Source: a virus
Taxonomy: Duplodnaviria; Heunggongvirae; Uroviricota; Caudoviricetes
Length of the DNA stretch: 57,411 nucleotides
Direction: 5' to 3' (one strand)
Virus record (IMG/VR): IMGVR_UViG_3300042465_005697
Location: 92,280-149,690 of that record
How positions within the stretch are numbered: the first letter of the stretch is position 1; each line of letters starts with the position of its first letter. The notes under the pieces were generated by a model, which ran no database searches, was not told the DNA's origin, and saw only the letters and a list, made by a program, of their open reading frames with translations. Positions 2,428 to 26,167 of the stretch are shown piece by piece. A program made the translations under genes and the position numbers.

Positions 2428-3549
2428 ATGAAAAAACACATTTTAACTTTAATTTTAGGTCTTTTTACTTTTATGGGTATTGGTCAAACAATATTATATA
2501 ATGATAATTGTGAGACCATAGGATATAATTGGTATGGATATCCAACAAATCCACAATTCCCTAGTGTTTATTCCACGTATTTTGGTGGAACCACTACGAT
2601 AGATGATAGACCTCAAAATAAACCTCTATATGTTAGTAACTCAACTTCATTTGGGTTATATGGTCTTGGGGATAATACTTCAGGGTCAGAATTTGAAAGA
2701 TATCAGTTACCTAACATCACAGGGTTAAGTCTGTCAAAAGTTTATAGGTTTAGTTTTAAATTGATGGCATATGCTGAGAACTTTTCAGGATTTAATGGTA
2801 GTGGTTTAGATGTATCAGATTCCGTTACTGTGAGAGTTTCAGTAAATAATGGACCCTATGTTATTGAATCTATAATCAAAGGATGGTCTAATTCTTATTG
2901 GAGTTTTGATGCCACTGGTGTAATTAACGAATCCGCAAATGGGTTACCAAATATATATAGACCTATAACAGGTGGTAATCAAGAAACAACAGGTTTTGGA
3001 TTTTCAACTTATAATCTAACAATCACAAATATCACTCAGATTCGAGTTAGAATTGATATGAGATCTAATTATGGTGGACTTAACTATGGTGAGTGGTGGG
3101 TCATTGATGATATGAAATTAATTGAAGAGTCGGCACTCCCAATTGAACTACTATCATTTGAAGGTTCCAAAAAAGAAGAATATAACGTATTAAAGTGGCA
3201 AACGGCATCTGAACATAACAATAGTCATTTTATTTTGGAGAGATCAGTTACGGGTGATTACACAGAGAAGGATGTTATAAATGTTGTTAATGGTGCTGGT
3301 AATAGTACTCAATTACTTGATTATGATTTTGTGGATACGGATGCTCCTGAATCAATTAATTATTATAGATTAACTCAAGTTGATTATGATGGTAATTTTA
3401 AACAGTATGGTCCAATATCAATTGATAATAGGGTAACAAGAAACATTGTTAAGTATTTTAATATAATGGGACAAGAAGTTAATGAATATGATAGGGGATT
3501 AATTATCCTACAATATGAGGATGGGACAGTAGAAAAGGTGATTAGATAA
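2428..3549 (+). CDS. Secreted Bacteroidota-type protein with signal peptide and T9SS-cargo-like C-terminal domains
   Basis: Signal peptide MKKHILTLILGLFTFMGIG followed by Q. LPIELLSFEG...LKWQTASEHNNSHFILERS...NYYRLTQVDYDG domain. CTD-like tail YFNIMGQEV...GLIILQYEDGTVEKVIR. Confidence 0.75.
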   Translation: MKKHILTLILGLFTFMGIGQTILYNDNCETIGYNWYGYPTNPQFPSVYSTYFGGTTTIDDRPQNKPLYVSNSTSFGLYGLGDNTSGSEFERYQLPNITGLSLSKVYRFSFKLMAYAENFSGFNGSGLDVSDSVTVRVSVNNGPYVIESIIKGWSNSYWSFDATGVINESANGLPNIYRPITGGNQETTGFGFSTYNLTITNITQIRVRIDMRSNYGGLNYGEWWVIDDMKLIEESALPIELLSFEGSKKEEYNVLKWQTASEHNNSHFILERSVTGDYTEKDVINVVNGAGNSTQLLDYDFVDTDAPESINYYRLTQVDYDGNFKQYGPISIDNRVTRNIVKYFNIMGQEVNEYDRGLIILQYEDGTVEKVIR

Positions 3550-21129: not shown

Positions 21130-22641
21130 TTAAACAATTACTATATTGTGTTTTATTTTTTCAAAACTATTTTTTATTTTAGGAAATAAAATGTTATTAT
21201 AATCATAAGTTAATTTTTTTAAATTATCTTCATCTTCATTTCTTGTTGATGATTCATAATGATATGCAACGCAATTACTATTAATATAATTAATATAGCC
21301 ATTATTTATATTTTCAATATTTAATTCTACATCTTCAAAACAAGACGTATATTGCTCATTAAACATTCCTAATTTATTAAATATTTTATTTCTTATCATT
21401 AATAATCCCCCTGTGTTACCAAACACACTTCTAATATTGGTATTGAAATTATAATAATTGTGTAAATTATAATGACCTACTTGGATAGTTTTAGTGTTTT
21501 GGTTAAATCCAATCAACACACCGTCGTGTTGTATCGTATTATCTCCAAAGTGTAATCTACACCCAACAGTACCAACCCCATGATGCGTGTTAAAAACATC
21601 TAACATACCTGTAATAACATTATTAAGGATTTTAATATCATTGTTACAAAACAGTAAAAATTCATAATCATCCAATACGTGATTTTTAACTACGTCGTTA
21701 TTAATTTTAGCAAAATTATAATAATCGTATTCAATTAATTTTATATTTGTATAAACACCAATATCCAATTTTAGTTGTTCTTTTTCTTCGTCGGTTGATC
21801 CTGTATCCGCAATAAATATGTCAAATAAATTAGAGTTACAATTATCATAGAATGAATGAATACAATCCATTAACATATTAATTTTACCTTTTGTTGGTAT
21901 TATAATGGCAACTTTACCAAATTTTTTAAATGTTTTTTCTTTAATCTCCGGAACATAAACAGATTCGGGTTTAAGGTCTAATGGTAATTCACTTCCCCAC
22001 TTCTCAACGAACTTATCTTTGCTTTCCCAAAATTCTTGGTTTGGTCTTCCAACAGATTGATGTGTTATCTCAAATGATGAGGTTACACCAATCTTAACTC
22101 CCGATAAGTAATTTGGTACACAGAATAGGTGATCGTAGAAGTGGAACTTACCAATGGTTGTATCAAACATATGGTTGCACTTTGTTTTATCAAATGACAT
22201 AAACAAACCATCAATCGTTACTACAGGAATTAAAAATGGTAATTTTGGTGAATATTTACTTAAGAATTTTTTTTGACCATCAGGATGATGATAAACTTGT
22301 CCTACCATAGTTTGATTCATTCTATCCCAATAAACTCCTGATTCGGGAAAATAACAAGAACCTGCTTTTCCAATAATACCATAGTCGGGATTATCTTCAA
22401 AATCTTTTAATAATTTTTTACCCCAATTTTTTTCAAGTTTAATGTCGTTATGACAACAAACTACAATATCATATATTGATTCGGTAACACCTGAATTATA
22501 TACATTAGATAATGAATGTTCATTATGATTTTCATATTCTAATATTTGAACATCCTTTAACCCAACAGTTTGTAACAAATGTTGTCTAAATTTGTTATTA
22601 TATTCTTGATCTTTATGTGTTGAATATATTATTGTTATCAT
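21130..22641 (-). CDS. Tandem double glycosyltransferase (GT2-like + GT2)
   Basis: Two GT-A domains: IVVCCHNDI...TIDGLFM...FHFYD, then VAIIIPTKG...LLFCNNDI...FEDVELN. Confidence 0.85.
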   Translation of the reverse strand: MITIIYSTHKDQEYNNKFRQHLLQTVGLKDVQILEYENHNEHSLSNVYNSGVTESIYDIVVCCHNDIKLEKNWGKKLLKDFEDNPDYGIIGKAGSCYFPESGVYWDRMNQTMVGQVYHHPDGQKKFLSKYSPKLPFLIPVVTIDGLFMSFDKTKCNHMFDTTIGKFHFYDHLFCVPNYLSGVKIGVTSSFEITHQSVGRPNQEFWESKDKFVEKWGSELPLDLKPESVYVPEIKEKTFKKFGKVAIIIPTKGKINMLMDCIHSFYDNCNSNLFDIFIADTGSTDEEKEQLKLDIGVYTNIKLIEYDYYNFAKINNDVVKNHVLDDYEFLLFCNNDIKILNNVITGMLDVFNTHHGVGTVGCRLHFGDNTIQHDGVLIGFNQNTKTIQVGHYNLHNYYNFNTNIRSVFGNTGGLLMIRNKIFNKLGMFNEQYTSCFEDVELNIENINNGYINYINSNCVAYHYESSTRNEDEDNLKKLTYDYNNILFPKIKNSFEKIKHNIVIV

Positions 22642-23246
22642 ATTCCAGTACTTCCGAATCCTTTTTCTCCTCGGTCTTTATTATTTATGTTATCAACCTT
22701 TGTTAATTTGATCCATTTACCTGAAACCACAGGACTAATAACTGCTTGGGCAATTTTTTGTCCTTTGTTAATTGTAATATTATTTTTTGTCGTATTAAAT
22801 AATATAACTTGAATTTCTCCTGTATATCCTTGATCCACCGTCCCTGGAGAATTTAATACCATAAGACCTTGTTTTAACGCCAAACCACTCTTAGACCTCA
22901 CCTGTACCTCATACCCGTCAGGAATATCAATATGTAACCCCGTTGGAATTAATGATCTACCAAACGATTCTATTTCAATTTCTTCAGTTGAAAACAAATC
23001 AAACCCATAATCTGTTGGGTAAGCATATGACGGATCAATAGAATCAACGTTGGATTGAGAATACTCAACCTTCATTTTTTGTTCAAAGTTTGCCATATCT
23101 CGTTCAAGTTCGGCAACATCAACACCAAAGATATCCATTATGTTTTGGTAGTCAGGTTCTTCATCACCAAACATATCCTCAAGTTCTTGGAGATTTTCTA
23201 GTTGATTAAGTAAGTCTCCAAGATTTTCTTCTTCTTCGTTAATCAT
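22638..23246 (-). CDS. dut: Trimeric dUTPase with acidic N-terminal extension
   Basis: GFDL, RSKSGLALK, NSPGTVDQGYTGEIQV, KIAQAV, RGEKGFGSTG. Confidence 0.95.
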   Translation of the reverse strand: MINEEEENLGDLLNQLENLQELEDMFGDEEPDYQNIMDIFGVDVAELERDMANFEQKMKVEYSQSNVDSIDPSYAYPTDYGFDLFSTEEIEIESFGRSLIPTGLHIDIPDGYEVQVRSKSGLALKQGLMVLNSPGTVDQGYTGEIQVILFNTTKNNITINKGQKIAQAVISPVVSGKWIKLTKVDNINNKDRGEKGFGSTGI

Positions 23247-23962
23247 TTTAATTCCTTTAATTTTTTAATAGTATCAACCAGTACCACAACATCTTTTTCG
23301 CAGTAATCTGAAATCTCTTTTAACATATTTTTATTCCAATAGTAGTCGTGAACTTTATCTCCCGTCACTTCACCATCTTTTGGTGTTGGTATATCCAAAC
23401 AAGTACACATAAGATCCAACGATCCGATAGATGTGTAAGAACCATATTGCCAAATCTCTTTGGTGTCAATTGCCTTAACTTCCCAAGGTTTTGTATCATA
23501 CGATGGTAAAAGTTTTGACGGCATAATCCCATTTATAATCATTCGTTTTGCCATCATCGGAATATCAAAATTCTTTAGGTTATGACCGCAAAGATAAAAA
23601 TCCAATTTATGGCAACGATTTAACAAATCCCTAACTTGGATTAACACTTCCTTTTCGTCATCCCCAGAGAATGTTTGTTTTTTAACATCTCCATTGTCCA
23701 TAACAAAAGCCATAGATACACAAACAATCTTTGCAAATTCAGGAACAAGAGCTGCTCTTTTAACAAAAACTTTGTTTTTCAATTCAACCTCAGATTCATC
23801 ACCAGTGTTATCCTCTGGAAATCTTTTTAAGAACCAATCAAAATACTTATCAAACTGATCGGCAATGTTTGGATTGTTTTCTTTACAGGTGTCATAATCT
23901 TTACAACCACCCACAGTTTCTACATCAAGAAACAAAATTTTTGTTATTGGTATGTTAATCAT
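23243..23962 (-). CDS. Stand-alone 3'-5' exonuclease (DnaQ/PolB-exo-like)
   Basis: FLDVETV (ExoI), CGHNLKNFDIP (ExoII), YCEKDV (ExoIII). Confidence 0.9.
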   Translation of the reverse strand: MINIPITKILFLDVETVGGCKDYDTCKENNPNIADQFDKYFDWFLKRFPEDNTGDESEVELKNKVFVKRAALVPEFAKIVCVSMAFVMDNGDVKKQTFSGDDEKEVLIQVRDLLNRCHKLDFYLCGHNLKNFDIPMMAKRMIINGIMPSKLLPSYDTKPWEVKAIDTKEIWQYGSYTSIGSLDLMCTCLDIPTPKDGEVTGDKVHDYYWNKNMLKEISDYCEKDVVVLVDTIKKLKELK

Positions 23963-23965
23963 TTT

Positions 23966-25195
23966 TTATTTAATTATTGATAAGTAAAATTCTTTTCTAT
24001 CTATTGTTACCTTATTAAGGTCGTAACGGTCTTTAACCGTTTCGTATAATCTTTCACCCATATCGGTAATCATATTTGGGTTATCAACCAACTTCTTAAT
24101 ATATTTTGCCCAATCACTATGGTTATTATTTTTATTAACCAATAAAGCATTACCATCAGTAAAATTACCATTATTAAGTGAATGTTTCAAATCAATCGTG
24201 TATGGTCCAACATTAGATGCAATCAATGCCTTTTTATAAAATCCTGCCTCAATAACTTTAAGTTGTGATTTCATTCTGTTAAATACGTGATCAACAATTG
24301 GTGATAAAGAAATATCAAACTTAGAGTAGTTCTTAGCATATGTTGTTGTTGGTTTTGTCCATACTCTAACATAATTTTCATTTTGCCATCCAGGATATTC
24401 ACCATCCTCAAACTTATCCAAATACTCCTTATATTTTGGTGTAACAATTTTATATTTGTCGGTAAAAATTTCTTCATACTTAACCCAAACAGTTTCTTCA
24501 GGTTTAATTGCCCGTTTTGTTTCTTGGTTTGTTTGTTTGTTAATTTCTGTTACCGTCCCTCTTGTGTCAAAACCACAAACATAATATTGTATTTTATCTT
24601 TGATTGGTGATAATTTTGAAACCATACCATCTAACAATTTTAAATCGTGTAAATGTGATGATCCACCCAACCAACCAACTCTTACTTTATCAGATGGTAA
24701 TGTTGGTTCATTAAATTGAGATTCCTTTGGGTTAATTGCGTTTGGAAATACAAAAACGTTTTTATTAAATTTTTTAATTTCAAATGCAAAAATCTCAGTT
24801 GTTGTTGTAACGTAAGATGAAACCTTAAGATTTGCAATAATTTTTTCGTGAATCTTATTATTTAAAATTAATTGTTGAATTGGGTGTTCCTTTGTTGGTA
24901 ACCAATAATCATCAATATCTGCAATAACAATTATTCCCATAGATTTAAGTTTCTCAATCAATGCGGGACATTTATCATAATCGGTTCCGATAGTTCTATG
25001 GTAATGAACAATATGGTATTGCAACCAATAATTCATATCGTCAATTCTTGGTTGATAATCTATTTCAACATGAAAATCATCAGGATATAAATTTTGTAAC
25101 ATTACATGGGGGTCGACAGAGCGAAATTTACCTCAGCCAACCCCAGAAGTGTCACTTGGGAGAACCAATACTCTGATTCTCTCACGACCATTCAT
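23966..25195 (-). CDS. GT-B glycosyltransferase with an in-frame TGA at codon 21 (candidate recoded gene)
   Basis: ATG 25195 is in frame with the track ORF starting at 25102: MNGRERIRVLVLPSDTSGVG-TGA(25135-25133)-GKFRSVDPHVMLQN. C-terminal DISLSPI...FNRMKSQLKVIEAG is GT4-like. Confidence 0.75.
25109..25144 (-). other. mRNA hairpin enclosing GGC-UGA-GGU
   Basis: GGGGUUGGC (25144-25136) pairs fully with GUCGACCCC (25117-25109): 9 bp including 2 GU pairs. After a U-U mismatch, GAG pairs with CUC. Confidence 0.7.
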
Positions 25196-25199
25196 GGGG

Positions 25200-26108
25200 T
25201 TATTTTGCGTCATATTTTTTAATTAGTTTATTTATTATTGTGTGATCCTCCTTTAAATCAGATTCCCACACTATTTCTAAATTATAACCCTTTTCTCTTA
25301 TTAAGTCAATCTTGTTTTTATCATACTCCCACAATTCTTTCGCAGTCTTTTGTTTTTTTTGGTTAAAATAATCGGGACCATATTTTTTTGGATTACAATG
25401 CCAATAATCACCATTATATTCAATAACCAAATTTAATGATGGGATAAAAATATCACATATTTTAGTTTCAACCCTTAATGAGTGTTGAACAACATATCCC
25501 ATTTTTCTAATTTCAACAACTATTTCTTTTTCCTTTTTAGATCTTATAACGGATTTAAGTTTCCCTAACCTCCTCGTTTCCTTCATCGTATCAGACATAA
25601 TTTTTCTTGCGTGTTCCATTTCACCATTATCCCATTTTTTCTTTAGATTAATTGATGATTTTTTCCTCCACATTAAATTTGCCATACTATTTTTATTACC
25701 GGTTGCCTTACCCTTACGATTTTTAGAAATTTTTTCCTTTGATTCTTTAGAATGTGTTTTACCAAAAAATGGGTTGCCCTCACCAATTTGGCGAATAAGA
25801 CTACATTTTTTACATAACGAATTTTTTAAATTAAAATAATTTCTACAAGCAATAGTCCTATCTTTTGATGTTGTCTTAACATCAAAACCACAATCAGGAC
25901 ATTTCCTCAAAATAACATATTTGTTATCATTTTTGATTATTTTTAAAGAATTACATCTATCTCTTTTTCTGGTTACGTTATGTTTTTTAAGTATTTTTAA
26001 AATTGTTGGTTTTGACACGAATAATTCTTTTGCCAACACTAACGAACTTTTACCCCCCAAGTATTCTTTAATAATAAATTGTTCGTTTAATTCTATTTTT
26101 TTTGCCAT
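25200..26108 (-). mobile_element. Free-standing homing endonuclease gene: HTH + Zn-ribbon + NUMOD3 + Vsr/DUF559-like PD-(D/E)xK nuclease
   Basis: CPDC...CKKC; GNPFFGKTHSKESKEKIS (NUMOD3); CDIFIPSLNLVIEYNGDYWH...WE.YD..K...IVWE (Vsr/EDxHD-like). Confidence 0.85.
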
Positions 26109-26125
26109 AATTAATGTGTATATAT

Positions 26126-26133
26126 TATAAATA
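26126..26133 (-). promoter_or_regulatory. TATTTATA motif
   Basis: 17 nt upstream of ATG 26108, downstream of a terminator. Confidence 0.55.
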
Positions 26134-26167
26134 GTCCCGTTCTATCAAAAGGTAAAATACTAATAAC

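Follow-up and report, generated by a model that had tools for sequence, protein, structure and literature searches.

Introduction

Programmed translational bypassing has one well-studied bacterial example, the coding gap of phage T4 gene 60 (Huang 1988 and Bonocora 2011, as cited in bioRxiv 10.1101/2022.08.31.505936; Wills et al., bioRxiv 10.1101/2024.12.09.627546). It is characterized by a stop-containing insertion in a topoisomerase subunit gene, which was brought in by a cassette with an HNH homing endonuclease, MobA, and is skipped by a displacement of 50 nt between matched glycine take-off and landing codons. A 2022 survey found relatives of this element only in topoisomerase genes (10.1101/2022.08.31.505936). 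Beyond it, short hops from a codon over a stop to a codon for the same tRNA were obtained in engineered constructs (work of 1987, as described in Atkins et al. 2016, PMC5009743); these were unprogrammed and inefficient, and the same review states that short natural counterparts were long expected and that no natural in-frame stop-hop was known. Other described cases are the 'byp' elements of Magnusiomyces capitatus mitochondria (as cited in PMC5009743 and 10.1101/2022.08.31.505936) and candidate bypassing in the terminase genes of Streptomyces phages (PMC10732093).

Here we describe a glycosyltransferase gene of a lake phage that carries a stop codon between two matching glycine codons at the edge of a homing-endonuclease cassette, and whose relatives carry gaps of other lengths at the same site. 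We found no paper describing it. The window that we analysed is a stretch of 57,411 nt from a 149.7-kb genome of the Caudoviricetes (IMG/VR record IMGVR_UViG_3300042465_005697, positions 92,280 to 149,690 of that record), and all features below are on its minus strand.

The interrupted glycosyltransferase gene and its cassette

A short ORF ends in GGC-TGA-GGT (25138-25130), and the same frame then runs open to the stop at 23968-23966, encoding the rest of an otherwise intact GT-B/GT4-like glycosyltransferase (Table 1). This is the only copy of the transferase in the genome. Most homologues (404-405 aa) read ...SGV-GKFRS... without the six bases, as the sequence-only reading had suggested. A sequence search of the transferase against the PDB recovered nothing; however, the AF2 model of the 97%-identical homologue has a pLDDT of 96.6, with β-1 at residues 5-10 and the following helix at residues 16-32, and Foldseek matches it to GlgM, PglA, MshA, BshA and PimA. 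The interruption falls in the most conserved N-terminal motif of the family, GVGxxR, in which R21 is invariant.

Table 1. Features of the interrupted transferase locus in window coordinates
Position (strand)	Feature	Extent or sequence
25129..26154 (-)	Mobile cassette	1,026 nt
25200..26108 (-)	Homing endonuclease gene	302 aa
25136..25213 (-)	Short first ORF of the transferase, starting 14 nt inside the endonuclease gene	26 codons from ATG 25213 to the take-off codon
25195..25202 (-)	5' arm of the long-range helix, inside the N-terminal extension	UAACCCCA
25160..25181 (-)	Inner hairpin, top of the extended 5' stem-loop	GAGAAUCA-GAGUAU-UGGUUCUC
25138..25145 (-)	3' arm of the long-range helix, ending on the first base of the take-off codon	UGGGGUUG
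25136..25138 (-)	Take-off codon (Gly)	GGC
25133..25135 (-)	In-frame stop, the whole untranslated gap proposed for this allele	TGA
25130..25132 (-)	Landing codon (Gly)	GGT
25109..25144 (-)	Stem-loop with the take-off codon and the stop in its 5' arm and the landing codon in its loop	GGGGUUGGC/GUCGACCCC plus GAG/CUC
23966..25132 (-)	Second ORF, the rest of the predicted GT-B (GT4-like) glycosyltransferase	388 codons from the landing codon, plus the stop

The TGA is not a sequencing error: it is present in independent metagenome contigs whose transferase is only 77-87% identical, in two other DNA runs and in contigs of two RNA libraries (although the latter could derive from contaminating DNA), the last two kinds showing no change or indel at 25130-25138. 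It was also recovered in 33 viral-contig matches, a count that includes repeat fetches of the same contigs and the aforementioned independent loci, and in 18 metagenome matches to a pattern that left the triplet free; all 51 carry a stop, 49 of them TGA and 2 TAA. A blastn search of the region against deposited phage genomes recovered nothing.

The six bases form the right edge of the cassette, which holds the endonuclease gene and a rewritten 5' end of the transferase gene, neither of which is found in a 97%-identical relative. Comparison of the window by blastn with an endonuclease-free relative (locus L004 of our set) showed homology over 28225-26155 (95.8%) and 25128-22427 (90.7%), with nothing alignable between them: the cassette replaces 93 nt of this relative, namely 40 nt of spacer plus the first 17.7 codons of the transferase gene. 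Gene maps of loci with and without the endonuclease gene agree with this, and the same cassette sits in transferase backgrounds from about 37% to 98% identical. The endonuclease combines an N-terminal helix-turn-helix, a four-Cys zinc finger with a NUMOD3 motif like the I-TevI DNA-binding domain and a C-terminal Vsr-like/EDxHD nuclease domain. This is supported by Pfam NUMOD3 and PHROG homing endonuclease matches, by a profile match to I-TevI (1i3j, E 4e-5), by invariant D219, E230, D234, H237 and D263, and by an AF2 model whose best PDB matches are I-Bth0305I (3r3p, TM 0.74) and Vsr (1cw0). A promoter-like site inside the endonuclease gene is confounded by the conserved GYNLE coding motif.

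The sequence-only reading placed the start of the short ORF at ATG 25195-25193, which opens MNGRERIRVLVLPSDTSGVG. However, this codon is ATG, TTG, GTG or CTG in relatives, whereas an in-frame ATG at 25213-25211 is conserved in all 32 gap-bearing alleles checked for it. Hence, the short ORF most likely starts at 25213. Counted from this ATG, the gap alleles have 26-29 codons to the take-off codon as against 17-20 in uninterrupted alleles, i.e. an N-terminus that is 6-9 codons longer in the window.

Natural variation of the gap

We collected 37 distinct gap-bearing alleles and 62 uninterrupted ones. The former comprise 17 take-off/gap/landing variants at the same residue, with displacements of 5, 6, 7, 8, 9, 10 and 13 nt (the gaps other than that of the window include TG, TGAA, TGACA, TGACTA, TGAATTA and TGAATTTAAA), and nine of the 17 shift the frame. 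Every gap starts with TGA or TAA directly after a GGY or AGY take-off codon, and a sense codon is never found in place of the stop, either in the 37 alleles or in the 51 pattern matches. Take-off and landing codons fall in the box of one tRNA (GGY/GGY or AGY/AGY) in 13 of the 17 variants and 33 of the 37 alleles; the other four variants are imperfectly matched, with GGY to GGA three times and AGT to GGC once. Where the residue is Ser, all six gap variants land on AGY, while uninterrupted alleles use TCN for 18 of the 27 Ser codons at this site. In the window GGC and GGT would be read by the same GGY-reading tRNA, although the phage itself has tRNA-Gly(UCC) but no tRNA-Gly(GCC), and the host and its tRNA set are unknown.

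One well-supported clade of the endonuclease tree holds gaps of 5, 6, 7, 8, 9 and 10 nt, which indicates that gap length drifts while the stop and the codon match are kept. The alleles are nevertheless related, and as the helix and the gap may have arisen once, counts of alleles are not counts of independent events.

RNA structures around the stop codon

Two mutually exclusive structures involve the take-off codon, as both use GGGGUU. The stem-loop holding the stop and the inner hairpin are both part of the minimum-free-energy fold. The long-range helix, which the sequence-only reading had listed as an alternative pairing, is the fold once downstream sequence is left out (dG -28.9 kcal/mol, z -3.3), and the inner hairpin is retained in it. 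As that reading had also suspected, codons in the element are rare in this genome: GGC, the rarest Gly codon, makes up 1.3% of Gly codons, CGC 0.7% of Arg, GTC 3.3% of Val and CCC 6.7% of Pro. An Rfam search found nothing.

The structure with real covariation is the long-range helix and not the hairpin that holds the stop. The helix is present in 37/37 gap alleles, whereas uninterrupted alleles have none, including the 12 of the first set, most of which have an endonuclease gene or remnant upstream, and show only short A/U- and G.U-rich chance matches in their 5' UTRs. As MAFFT alignments of all classes put the 5' arm out of register by 2 columns, we counted pairs on arms anchored to the take-off codon and treated only the flanking pairs as unbiased: these are 74% paired against 18-50% in slid registers, a value reached by 0 of 2000 shuffles. 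On a gap-free alignment of 25 alleles of the window's subgroup, 91.7% of cells are paired against 29-50% in slid registers, with 21 double-sided changes against 7.8 +/- 1.9 in shuffles (0/500). In this alignment the pair 21-71 of the long-range helix reads AU16/UG7/CG1/GC1, and compensatory changes in the inner hairpin are seen at pairs 35-56 (GC18/AU4/UA1) and 41-50 (CG20/UA5). The core CCCC/GGGG becomes CUCC/GGAG in 5 alleles, and when the take-off codon changes from GGC to AGC its partner changes from C to U. G.U pairs place the structure on the sense-strand RNA.

The stop-holding hairpin is well conserved in the window's subgroup, where dG is -15 to -26 kcal/mol (z -1.7 to -5.8, about -2 or below in all but one of the 19 alleles) and it is 96.9% paired in 25 alleles. 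However, its covariation is weak (72 of 500 shuffles reach it), and distant classes have no such fold. Hence, it is not the universal signal.

Selection on the two reading frames

Both sides of the gap show the signature of translation in the transferase frame, with a pN/pS of 0.24-0.26 for the 13 codons upstream and 0.16-0.28 for the 9 codons downstream. The gene body is as constrained as in uninterrupted alleles (dN/dS 0.04-0.14), including pairs that share one gap type and differ at 23-50% of synonymous sites and, among them, two alleles that share the 13-nt frame-shifting gap (pS 0.235, dN/dS 0.04). The ORF is intact from the landing codon in every allele not cut by a contig end, while the first in-frame start codon is often 50-260 codons away. 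Moreover, alleles whose endonuclease gene is truncated, frameshifted or gone (loci L051, L056/58, L110, L116, L127 and L047) keep the gap, the helix and an intact transferase.

A probable short translational hop

Taken together, these observations are best explained by a programmed short translational bypass carried by the homing-endonuclease cassette, a reading that we hold with fair but not full confidence because it rests on selection acting on both ORFs and on sequence comparison, without protein or reporter evidence of any kind. In this scenario translation starts at ATG 25213 and, with peptidyl-tRNA-Gly on GGC and UGA in the A site, the tRNA lets go of its codon, the mRNA slides 6 nt and the same tRNA re-pairs with GGU, after which decoding resumes at AAA 25129-25127. 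The product would read ...SDTSGVG-KFRS... (tryptic junction peptide VLVLPSDTSGVGK), the sequence of uninterrupted relatives apart from the N-terminal extension of the cassette. The forward slide is probably helped by re-folding of the extended 5' stem-loop (25202-25138) behind the ribosome; however, with a slide of only 5-6 nt the outer helix cannot form until the ribosome has moved further, and its role as a driver is thus uncertain. By analogy with MobA, the six bases probably sit in the target site of the endonuclease, so that carriers would be immune to cutting.

The sequence-only reading had proposed either a 6-nt bypass or read-through, and the comparison separates the two. A read-through product with two extra residues (...GVG-W-GKFRS...) is conceivable for this allele, as its gap is in frame, the phage encodes a tRNA-Trp(CCA), UGA is probably the leakiest stop in general, and gene callers using code 4 produced such proteins for relatives. 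Yet the same cassette lineage also occurs with TAA (loci L321, L243 and five other alleles), nine variants shift the frame and cannot be rescued in this way, the stop is never replaced by a sense codon as a tolerated two-residue insertion should allow, and neither the matched flanking codons nor the helix is explained; hence read-through cannot be the shared mechanism, and we consider it improbable here. In contrast, a hop from the codon before the stop to the next codon read by the same tRNA restores the uninterrupted protein in every class, notwithstanding the four imperfectly matched variants. A reassigned code or suppressor tRNA is contradicted: TGA ends 32 of 176 long ORFs, genes are not fragmented under code 11, and none of the 25 tRNAs has a UCA anticodon, while the TAA and frame-shifting variants again speak against it and only the translation of some relatives under code 4 by gene callers speaks for it.

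It is also unlikely that the gap is merely a selfish scar, in which homing spreads a null or N-terminally truncated transferase and the ORF looks intact only because the invasions are recent. The gap is indeed the edge of a mobile cassette, homing may spread harmful alleles, and this allele has an ATG (25102) ten codons after the gap from which gene callers report a 378-aa ORF. However, purifying selection on the body, on the codons before the stop and on those between the landing codon and the Met speaks against this, as does the persistence of the gap where the endonuclease has decayed; many alleles have Lys in place of that Met, and the truncated product would lack strand β-1 of the Rossmann domain. 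A different recoding event in each class, or termination and restart with non-covalent assembly of a 26-aa peptide and the rest of the enzyme, is unlikely as well. The short gaps are open in the frame that each class would need, a G-rich run two bases before the shift codon with a stop in the A site may recall the prfB +1 frameshift site, and split phage genes that still work are known (cited in PMC2677866). Against this, the P-site tRNA has no overlapping codon to re-pair with in a +1 or +2 shift (GGC to GCU, AGC to GCU), three different mechanisms would be needed at one homologous site, the gap-encoded residues are not conserved, and there is no ATG, GTG or TTG at or near the landing codon in the transferase frame. 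Removal of the gap by RNA editing or processing, or its absence from a sub-population of genomes, is very unlikely: contigs cannot show rare variants and a minority form cannot be excluded, but the RNA-library contigs and the two further DNA runs carry the gap unchanged with no joint or indel reported, no known mechanism removes 2-10 nt precisely, and the G.U pairs and the covarying helix fit a translational signal.

A more far-reaching possibility, about as likely as not, is that the cassette is a self-contained 'hop module', in which the endonuclease-borne 5' stem-loop, together with a stop and a repeated codon, makes ribosomes slide over any short gap. This would let a homing endonuclease scar its own target inside an essential enzyme motif without killing the gene, and the natural series of 5-13-nt gaps would then be evolution's own mutagenesis of a bypass signal.

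Comparison with described bypassing and endonuclease systems

With T4 gene 60 the locus shares a stop-containing insertion carried by a homing-endonuclease cassette, matched Gly take-off and landing codons, a 5' stem-loop upstream of take-off and the persistence of the gap where the endonuclease gene has decayed; in the window's subgroup a stem-loop with the take-off codon in its 5' arm may be shared as well, but its covariation is weak. It differs in its displacement of 5-13 nt (6 in the window) rather than 50, in its host gene, in its Vsr-like/EDxHD rather than HNH endonuclease, in that the gene is not split in two, and in that the helix abuts the take-off codon, whereas the T4 stem-loop lies 9 nt upstream of it. 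We found no evidence for a gap Shine-Dalgarno sequence, a forward barrier or a KKYK-type nascent-peptide signal, although for the last of these the P-x-x-G-R-(K/E) shared by the N-terminal extensions of gap alleles overlaps the 5' arm of the helix, so that its conservation cannot be assigned to the peptide. As there is no sequence homology, we regard the locus as an analogue and not a member of the T4 element.

The window's allele has exactly the geometry of the engineered stop-hops, i.e. codon, stop, then a codon for the same tRNA, but it is natural, conserved and accompanied by a covarying RNA structure and frame-shifting sister alleles; alleles with the endonuclease gene but no gap provide matched controls. 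At present, gene callers report these genes as truncated 378-aa proteins or translate them under code 4. The Magnusiomyces capitatus byp elements are likewise many short mobile inserts neutralised by bypassing, with imperfect take-off/landing matches tolerated in some. However, they occur in mitochondria, are 27-55 nt long, have an unused sense codon rather than a stop in the A site and are not linked to an endonuclease, and bypassing there seems independent of mRNA context. The candidate in Streptomyces phage terminase genes is also a short coding gap in a phage gene proposed from sequence comparison, but it is in a different gene, relies on the rare UUA codon, is thought to be regulatory and is not a homing-endonuclease cassette. 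On the side of the endonuclease, the nuclease fold, the conserved E, D, H and D residues, the NUMOD-type DNA-binding modules and the occurrence as a free-standing gene next to a conserved enzyme motif in phage genomes are shared with the Vsr-like/EDxHD homing endonucleases of 'fractured genes' (Dassa et al. 2009, PMC2677866) and I-Bth0305I (PDB 3r3p). Here, however, the endonuclease gene neither splits the gene nor is paired with a split intein: the damage it brings is a micro-gap in the neighbouring gene.

The gap-bearing reading frame and the authenticity of its stop codon

The short first reading frame of the glycosyltransferase gene, counted from the ATG at 25195, comprises 20 codons and ends with GGC followed by TGA, beyond which the same frame continues with GGT AAA TTT to the natural end of the gene (see table of features). 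A sequence-only reading of this region had placed here two hairpins and an alternative pairing, and all three are recovered by energy folding. The codons used in the element are very rare in this 31.5% G+C genome, with GGC accounting for 1.3% of Gly codons and CGC for 0.7% of Arg codons. While the sequence-only reading opened the frame at the ATG at 25195, this codon varies among ATG, TTG, GTG and CTG in relatives. In contrast, an in-frame ATG six codons further upstream, which lies inside the end of the neighboring gene, is conserved in all 32 gap-bearing relatives checked. Hence, the short ORF most likely begins at the latter position.

Coordinates of the features discussed in the text (positions in the window unless stated otherwise)
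Feature	Position	Strand
Conserved in-frame ATG, most likely start of the short ORF	25213	minus
Variable ATG/TTG/GTG/CTG codon	25195	minus
Take-off codon GGC	25138-25136	minus
In-frame stop TGA	25135-25133	minus
Landing codon GGT	25132-25130	minus
Stop of the continuing frame	23966	minus
ATG of the 378-aa ORF	25100-25102	
Homing endonuclease gene	26108-25200	
Point where homology with the endonuclease-free relative stops	26155	
Point where homology with the endonuclease-free relative resumes	25128	
C-rich arm of the long-range helix	25202-25195	
G-rich arm of the long-range helix	25145-25138	
Hairpin holding the stop	25144-25109	
Near-consensus sigma-70-type promoter match	25281-25309	minus
Run of co-oriented genes (and neighbors)	21130-25195	
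tRNA genes of the phage, outside the window	C1 (own genome) 45221-65267	

The stop codon is real and TGA is a normal stop in this genome. Proteins called under code 4 from two unrelated metagenomes translate to the query only with TGA read as Trp, and other contigs carry the same truncated call of 378 aa. Two further DNA runs and contigs of two metatranscriptome libraries cover 25130-25138 with no change or indel, although DNA carry-over in the RNA libraries cannot be excluded. A metatranscriptome contig (X19), about 90% identical to the window (18 differences over 188 nt) and covering 25042-25229, keeps the TGA but differs at all three bases of the ATG that opens the 378-aa ORF; thus, an expressed, or at least co-sampled, relative lacks the restart codon. 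TGA ends 32 of 176 long ORFs, and there is no sign of in-frame TGAs in other genes. The 25 tRNA genes of the phage include Trp(CCA), Gly(UCC) and Ser(GCU), but no tRNA with a UCA anticodon and no Gly(GCC). The tRNA proposed to hop must therefore come from the unknown host.

A homing-endonuclease cassette at the 5' end of the transferase gene

The gene immediately upstream encodes a 302-aa protein with three parts: a resolvase-like helix-turn-helix; a four-Cys zinc finger with NUMOD3, like the I-TevI DNA-binding domain; and a C-terminal nuclease with invariant D219, E230, D234, H237 and D263. The predicted fold of this protein best matches the I-Bth0305I catalytic domain and Vsr, and this is the Vsr-like/EDxHD family of homing endonucleases (PMC2677866). 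A phage contig whose transferase is 97% identical lacks this gene, and comparison with it shows that 1,026 nt of the window replace 93 nt of that relative, namely the spacer and the first 17.7 codons. The right edge of the cassette is the landing codon. Inside the 3' part of the endonuclease gene, about 70 nt upstream of the conserved ATG, we observed a promoter match (TTGACT, 17 nt, TATAAT; 11 of 12). It is possible that the cassette brings its own promoter for the transferase; however, TATAAT coincides with the conserved GYNLE coding motif. The transferase itself sits in a run of co-oriented genes, which includes a predicted 3'-5' exonuclease, a dUTPase and a two-domain GT2 enzyme with further transferases beyond it, and the same gene order is seen in relatives with and without the cassette.

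Diversity of gaps at a single site

To explore the distribution of the gap, we collected loci in four ways: through relatives of the endonuclease; through two DNA patterns that left the stop triplet free; through a transferase query that is blind to the gap; and through exact look-ups of homologous proteins, which added six loci. This yielded 37 distinct gap-bearing and 62 distinct uninterrupted alleles, with the former comprising 17 take-off/gap/landing variants.

Take-off/gap/landing variants by displacement, written as take-off codon, gap and landing codon
Displacement	Variants
5 nt	AGT-TG-AGC
6 nt	GGC-TGA-GGT; GGT-TGA-GGT; GGT-TAA-GGT; GGT-TAA-GGC; GGT-TAA-GGA; GGT-TGA-GGA; AGT-TAA-GGC
7 nt	AGC-TGAA-AGC; AGC-TGAT-AGC; GGC-TGAA-GGT
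8 nt	AGC-TGACA-AGC; AGC-TGAAA-AGT; GGT-TAAAT-GGT
9 nt	AGC-TGACTA-AGC
10 nt	GGC-TGAATTA-GGT
13 nt	GGC-TGAATTTAAA-GGA

Every gap starts with a stop codon directly after the take-off codon, and nine of the variants shift the frame, the 13-nt case having been checked by direct translation. In all 51 transferase-type matches to the free-triplet patterns the triplet is TGA (49) or TAA (2), and never a sense codon; the 33 viral-contig matches among these include repeat fetches of the same contigs and the loci from the protein look-ups, and hence they do not represent 51 independent alleles. One of the TAA cases (locus L321) is in a cassette otherwise like that of the window. In 33 of the 37 alleles the two flanking codons are read by one tRNA. 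The residue at this site is Gly or Ser in uninterrupted alleles, and while Ser there is encoded by TCN in 18 of 27 alleles, all six Ser-type gap variants use AGY on both sides. Four gap variants, AGT-TAA-GGC (locus L031) and those with GGY to GGA (loci L018, L023 and L028), have take-off and landing codons that one tRNA would not normally read; either mismatched landing is tolerated, as in yeast mitochondria, or these alleles work differently or poorly. In Ser-type alleles (locus L047 around 3446-3460; also L029, L054 and L199) the take-off and landing codons with the next base read AGCU...AGCU. This sequence is self-complementary and is predicted to form a four-pair mini-hairpin that brings the landing codon next to the take-off codon, though this may be a by-product of the palindrome. 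The same cassette is also carried at the same N-terminal motif by two-domain transferases of about 770-780 codons (loci L029, L039, L041, L047 and L054), indicating that the element has spread across quite different transferase architectures (37-52% identity to the enzyme of the window).

An RNA structure associated with the gap

A long-range helix pairs a C-rich stretch in the N-terminal extension with a G-rich stretch ending on the first base of the take-off codon, and is present in all 37 gap alleles. Uninterrupted alleles have no such helix, including the 12 of the first set, most of which have an endonuclease gene or remnant upstream. Compensatory changes in the helix include: CCCC/GGGG to CUCC/GGAG; four pair types (A-U, U.G, G-C, C-G) at the position next to the core; and C to U opposite the change from GGC to AGC at the take-off codon. 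The G.U pairs place the structure on the sense-strand RNA. On a gap-free alignment of 25 alleles of the window's subgroup, the whole extended stem-loop is 91.7% paired, against 29-50% in slid registers, and shows 21 double-sided changes against 7.8 +/- 1.9 in shuffles (0/500). The hairpin that holds the stop is strong and 96.9% paired in the same subgroup, but it shows little covariation and is absent from distant classes. It excludes the long-range helix because both use GGGGUU.

Selective constraints on the gap-bearing gene

The gene appears to be under selection as one protein. The pN/pS ratio is 0.24-0.26 for the 13 codons before the take-off codon and 0.16-0.28 for the nine codons after the landing codon, while dN/dS of the gene body among gap alleles is 0.04-0.14, as among uninterrupted alleles, including a value of 0.04 for two alleles that share the 13-nt gap and differ at 23.5% of synonymous sites. 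Every gap allele not cut by a contig end is open from the landing codon to the natural end, with the first in-frame start often 50-260 codons downstream, and many alleles have Lys in place of the Met that opens the 378-aa ORF in the window. Seven alleles with a truncated, frameshifted or missing endonuclease gene keep the gap, the helix and the intact gene. The genome has a single copy of the transferase. The family is large, with about 4,100 clusters at 50% identity, and in it R21 is invariant and G16 nearly so.

Evolutionary history of the gap

On the endonuclease tree the gap state needs at least three changes, for example one gain and two losses, and one well-supported clade contains gaps of 5, 6, 7, 8, 9 and 10 nt. 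The helix and gap may thus have arisen once, with gap length then drifting while the stop and the codon match were kept; allele counts are therefore not counts of independent events. Relatives of the endonuclease are also found upstream of transferase genes that have no gap, no helix and no N-terminal extension (loci L025, L027, L030, L032, L036 and L037), where the transferase ATG lies in the same AAATATG overlap with the endonuclease C-terminus. Two such groups are nested among gap-bearing clades on the tree; hence, either the gap has been lost or the endonuclease gene has moved without it.

Proposed mechanism and comparison with known bypassing systems

The only single mechanism that restores the protein in all 17 variants is translational bypassing: the peptidyl-tRNA detaches from the codon before the stop, the mRNA slides and the tRNA re-pairs at the next cognate codon. 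For the allele in the window this is a 6-nt 'stop-hop', which yields the sequence of uninterrupted relatives at the junction. The proposal of the sequence-only reading, a 6-nt programmed bypass or read-through element, is supported, and we consider a programmed short hop to be the probable, though not certain, explanation. By analogy with the 5' stem-loop of T4 gene 60 and the proposed pull from mRNA pairing at the exit of the ribosome, we infer that re-folding of the extended 5' stem-loop behind the ribosome biases the slide forward. However, for slides of 5-6 nt the outer helix could form only later, and its role might instead be to block backward movement or to time initiation. That the gap protects carriers from the endonuclease is likewise an inference, from its position at the cassette edge and from the MobA precedent.

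Full-text searches of the literature recovered no paper on this transferase cassette. Synthetic stop-hops have the same geometry, but no natural in-frame example was known according to a 2016 review (PMC5009743). The closest system is the T4 gene 60/MobA cassette. In comparison to it, the host gene, the endonuclease family, the gap length and the helix geometry all differ, and there is no homology. The element probably works like the T4 system but is not a member of it.
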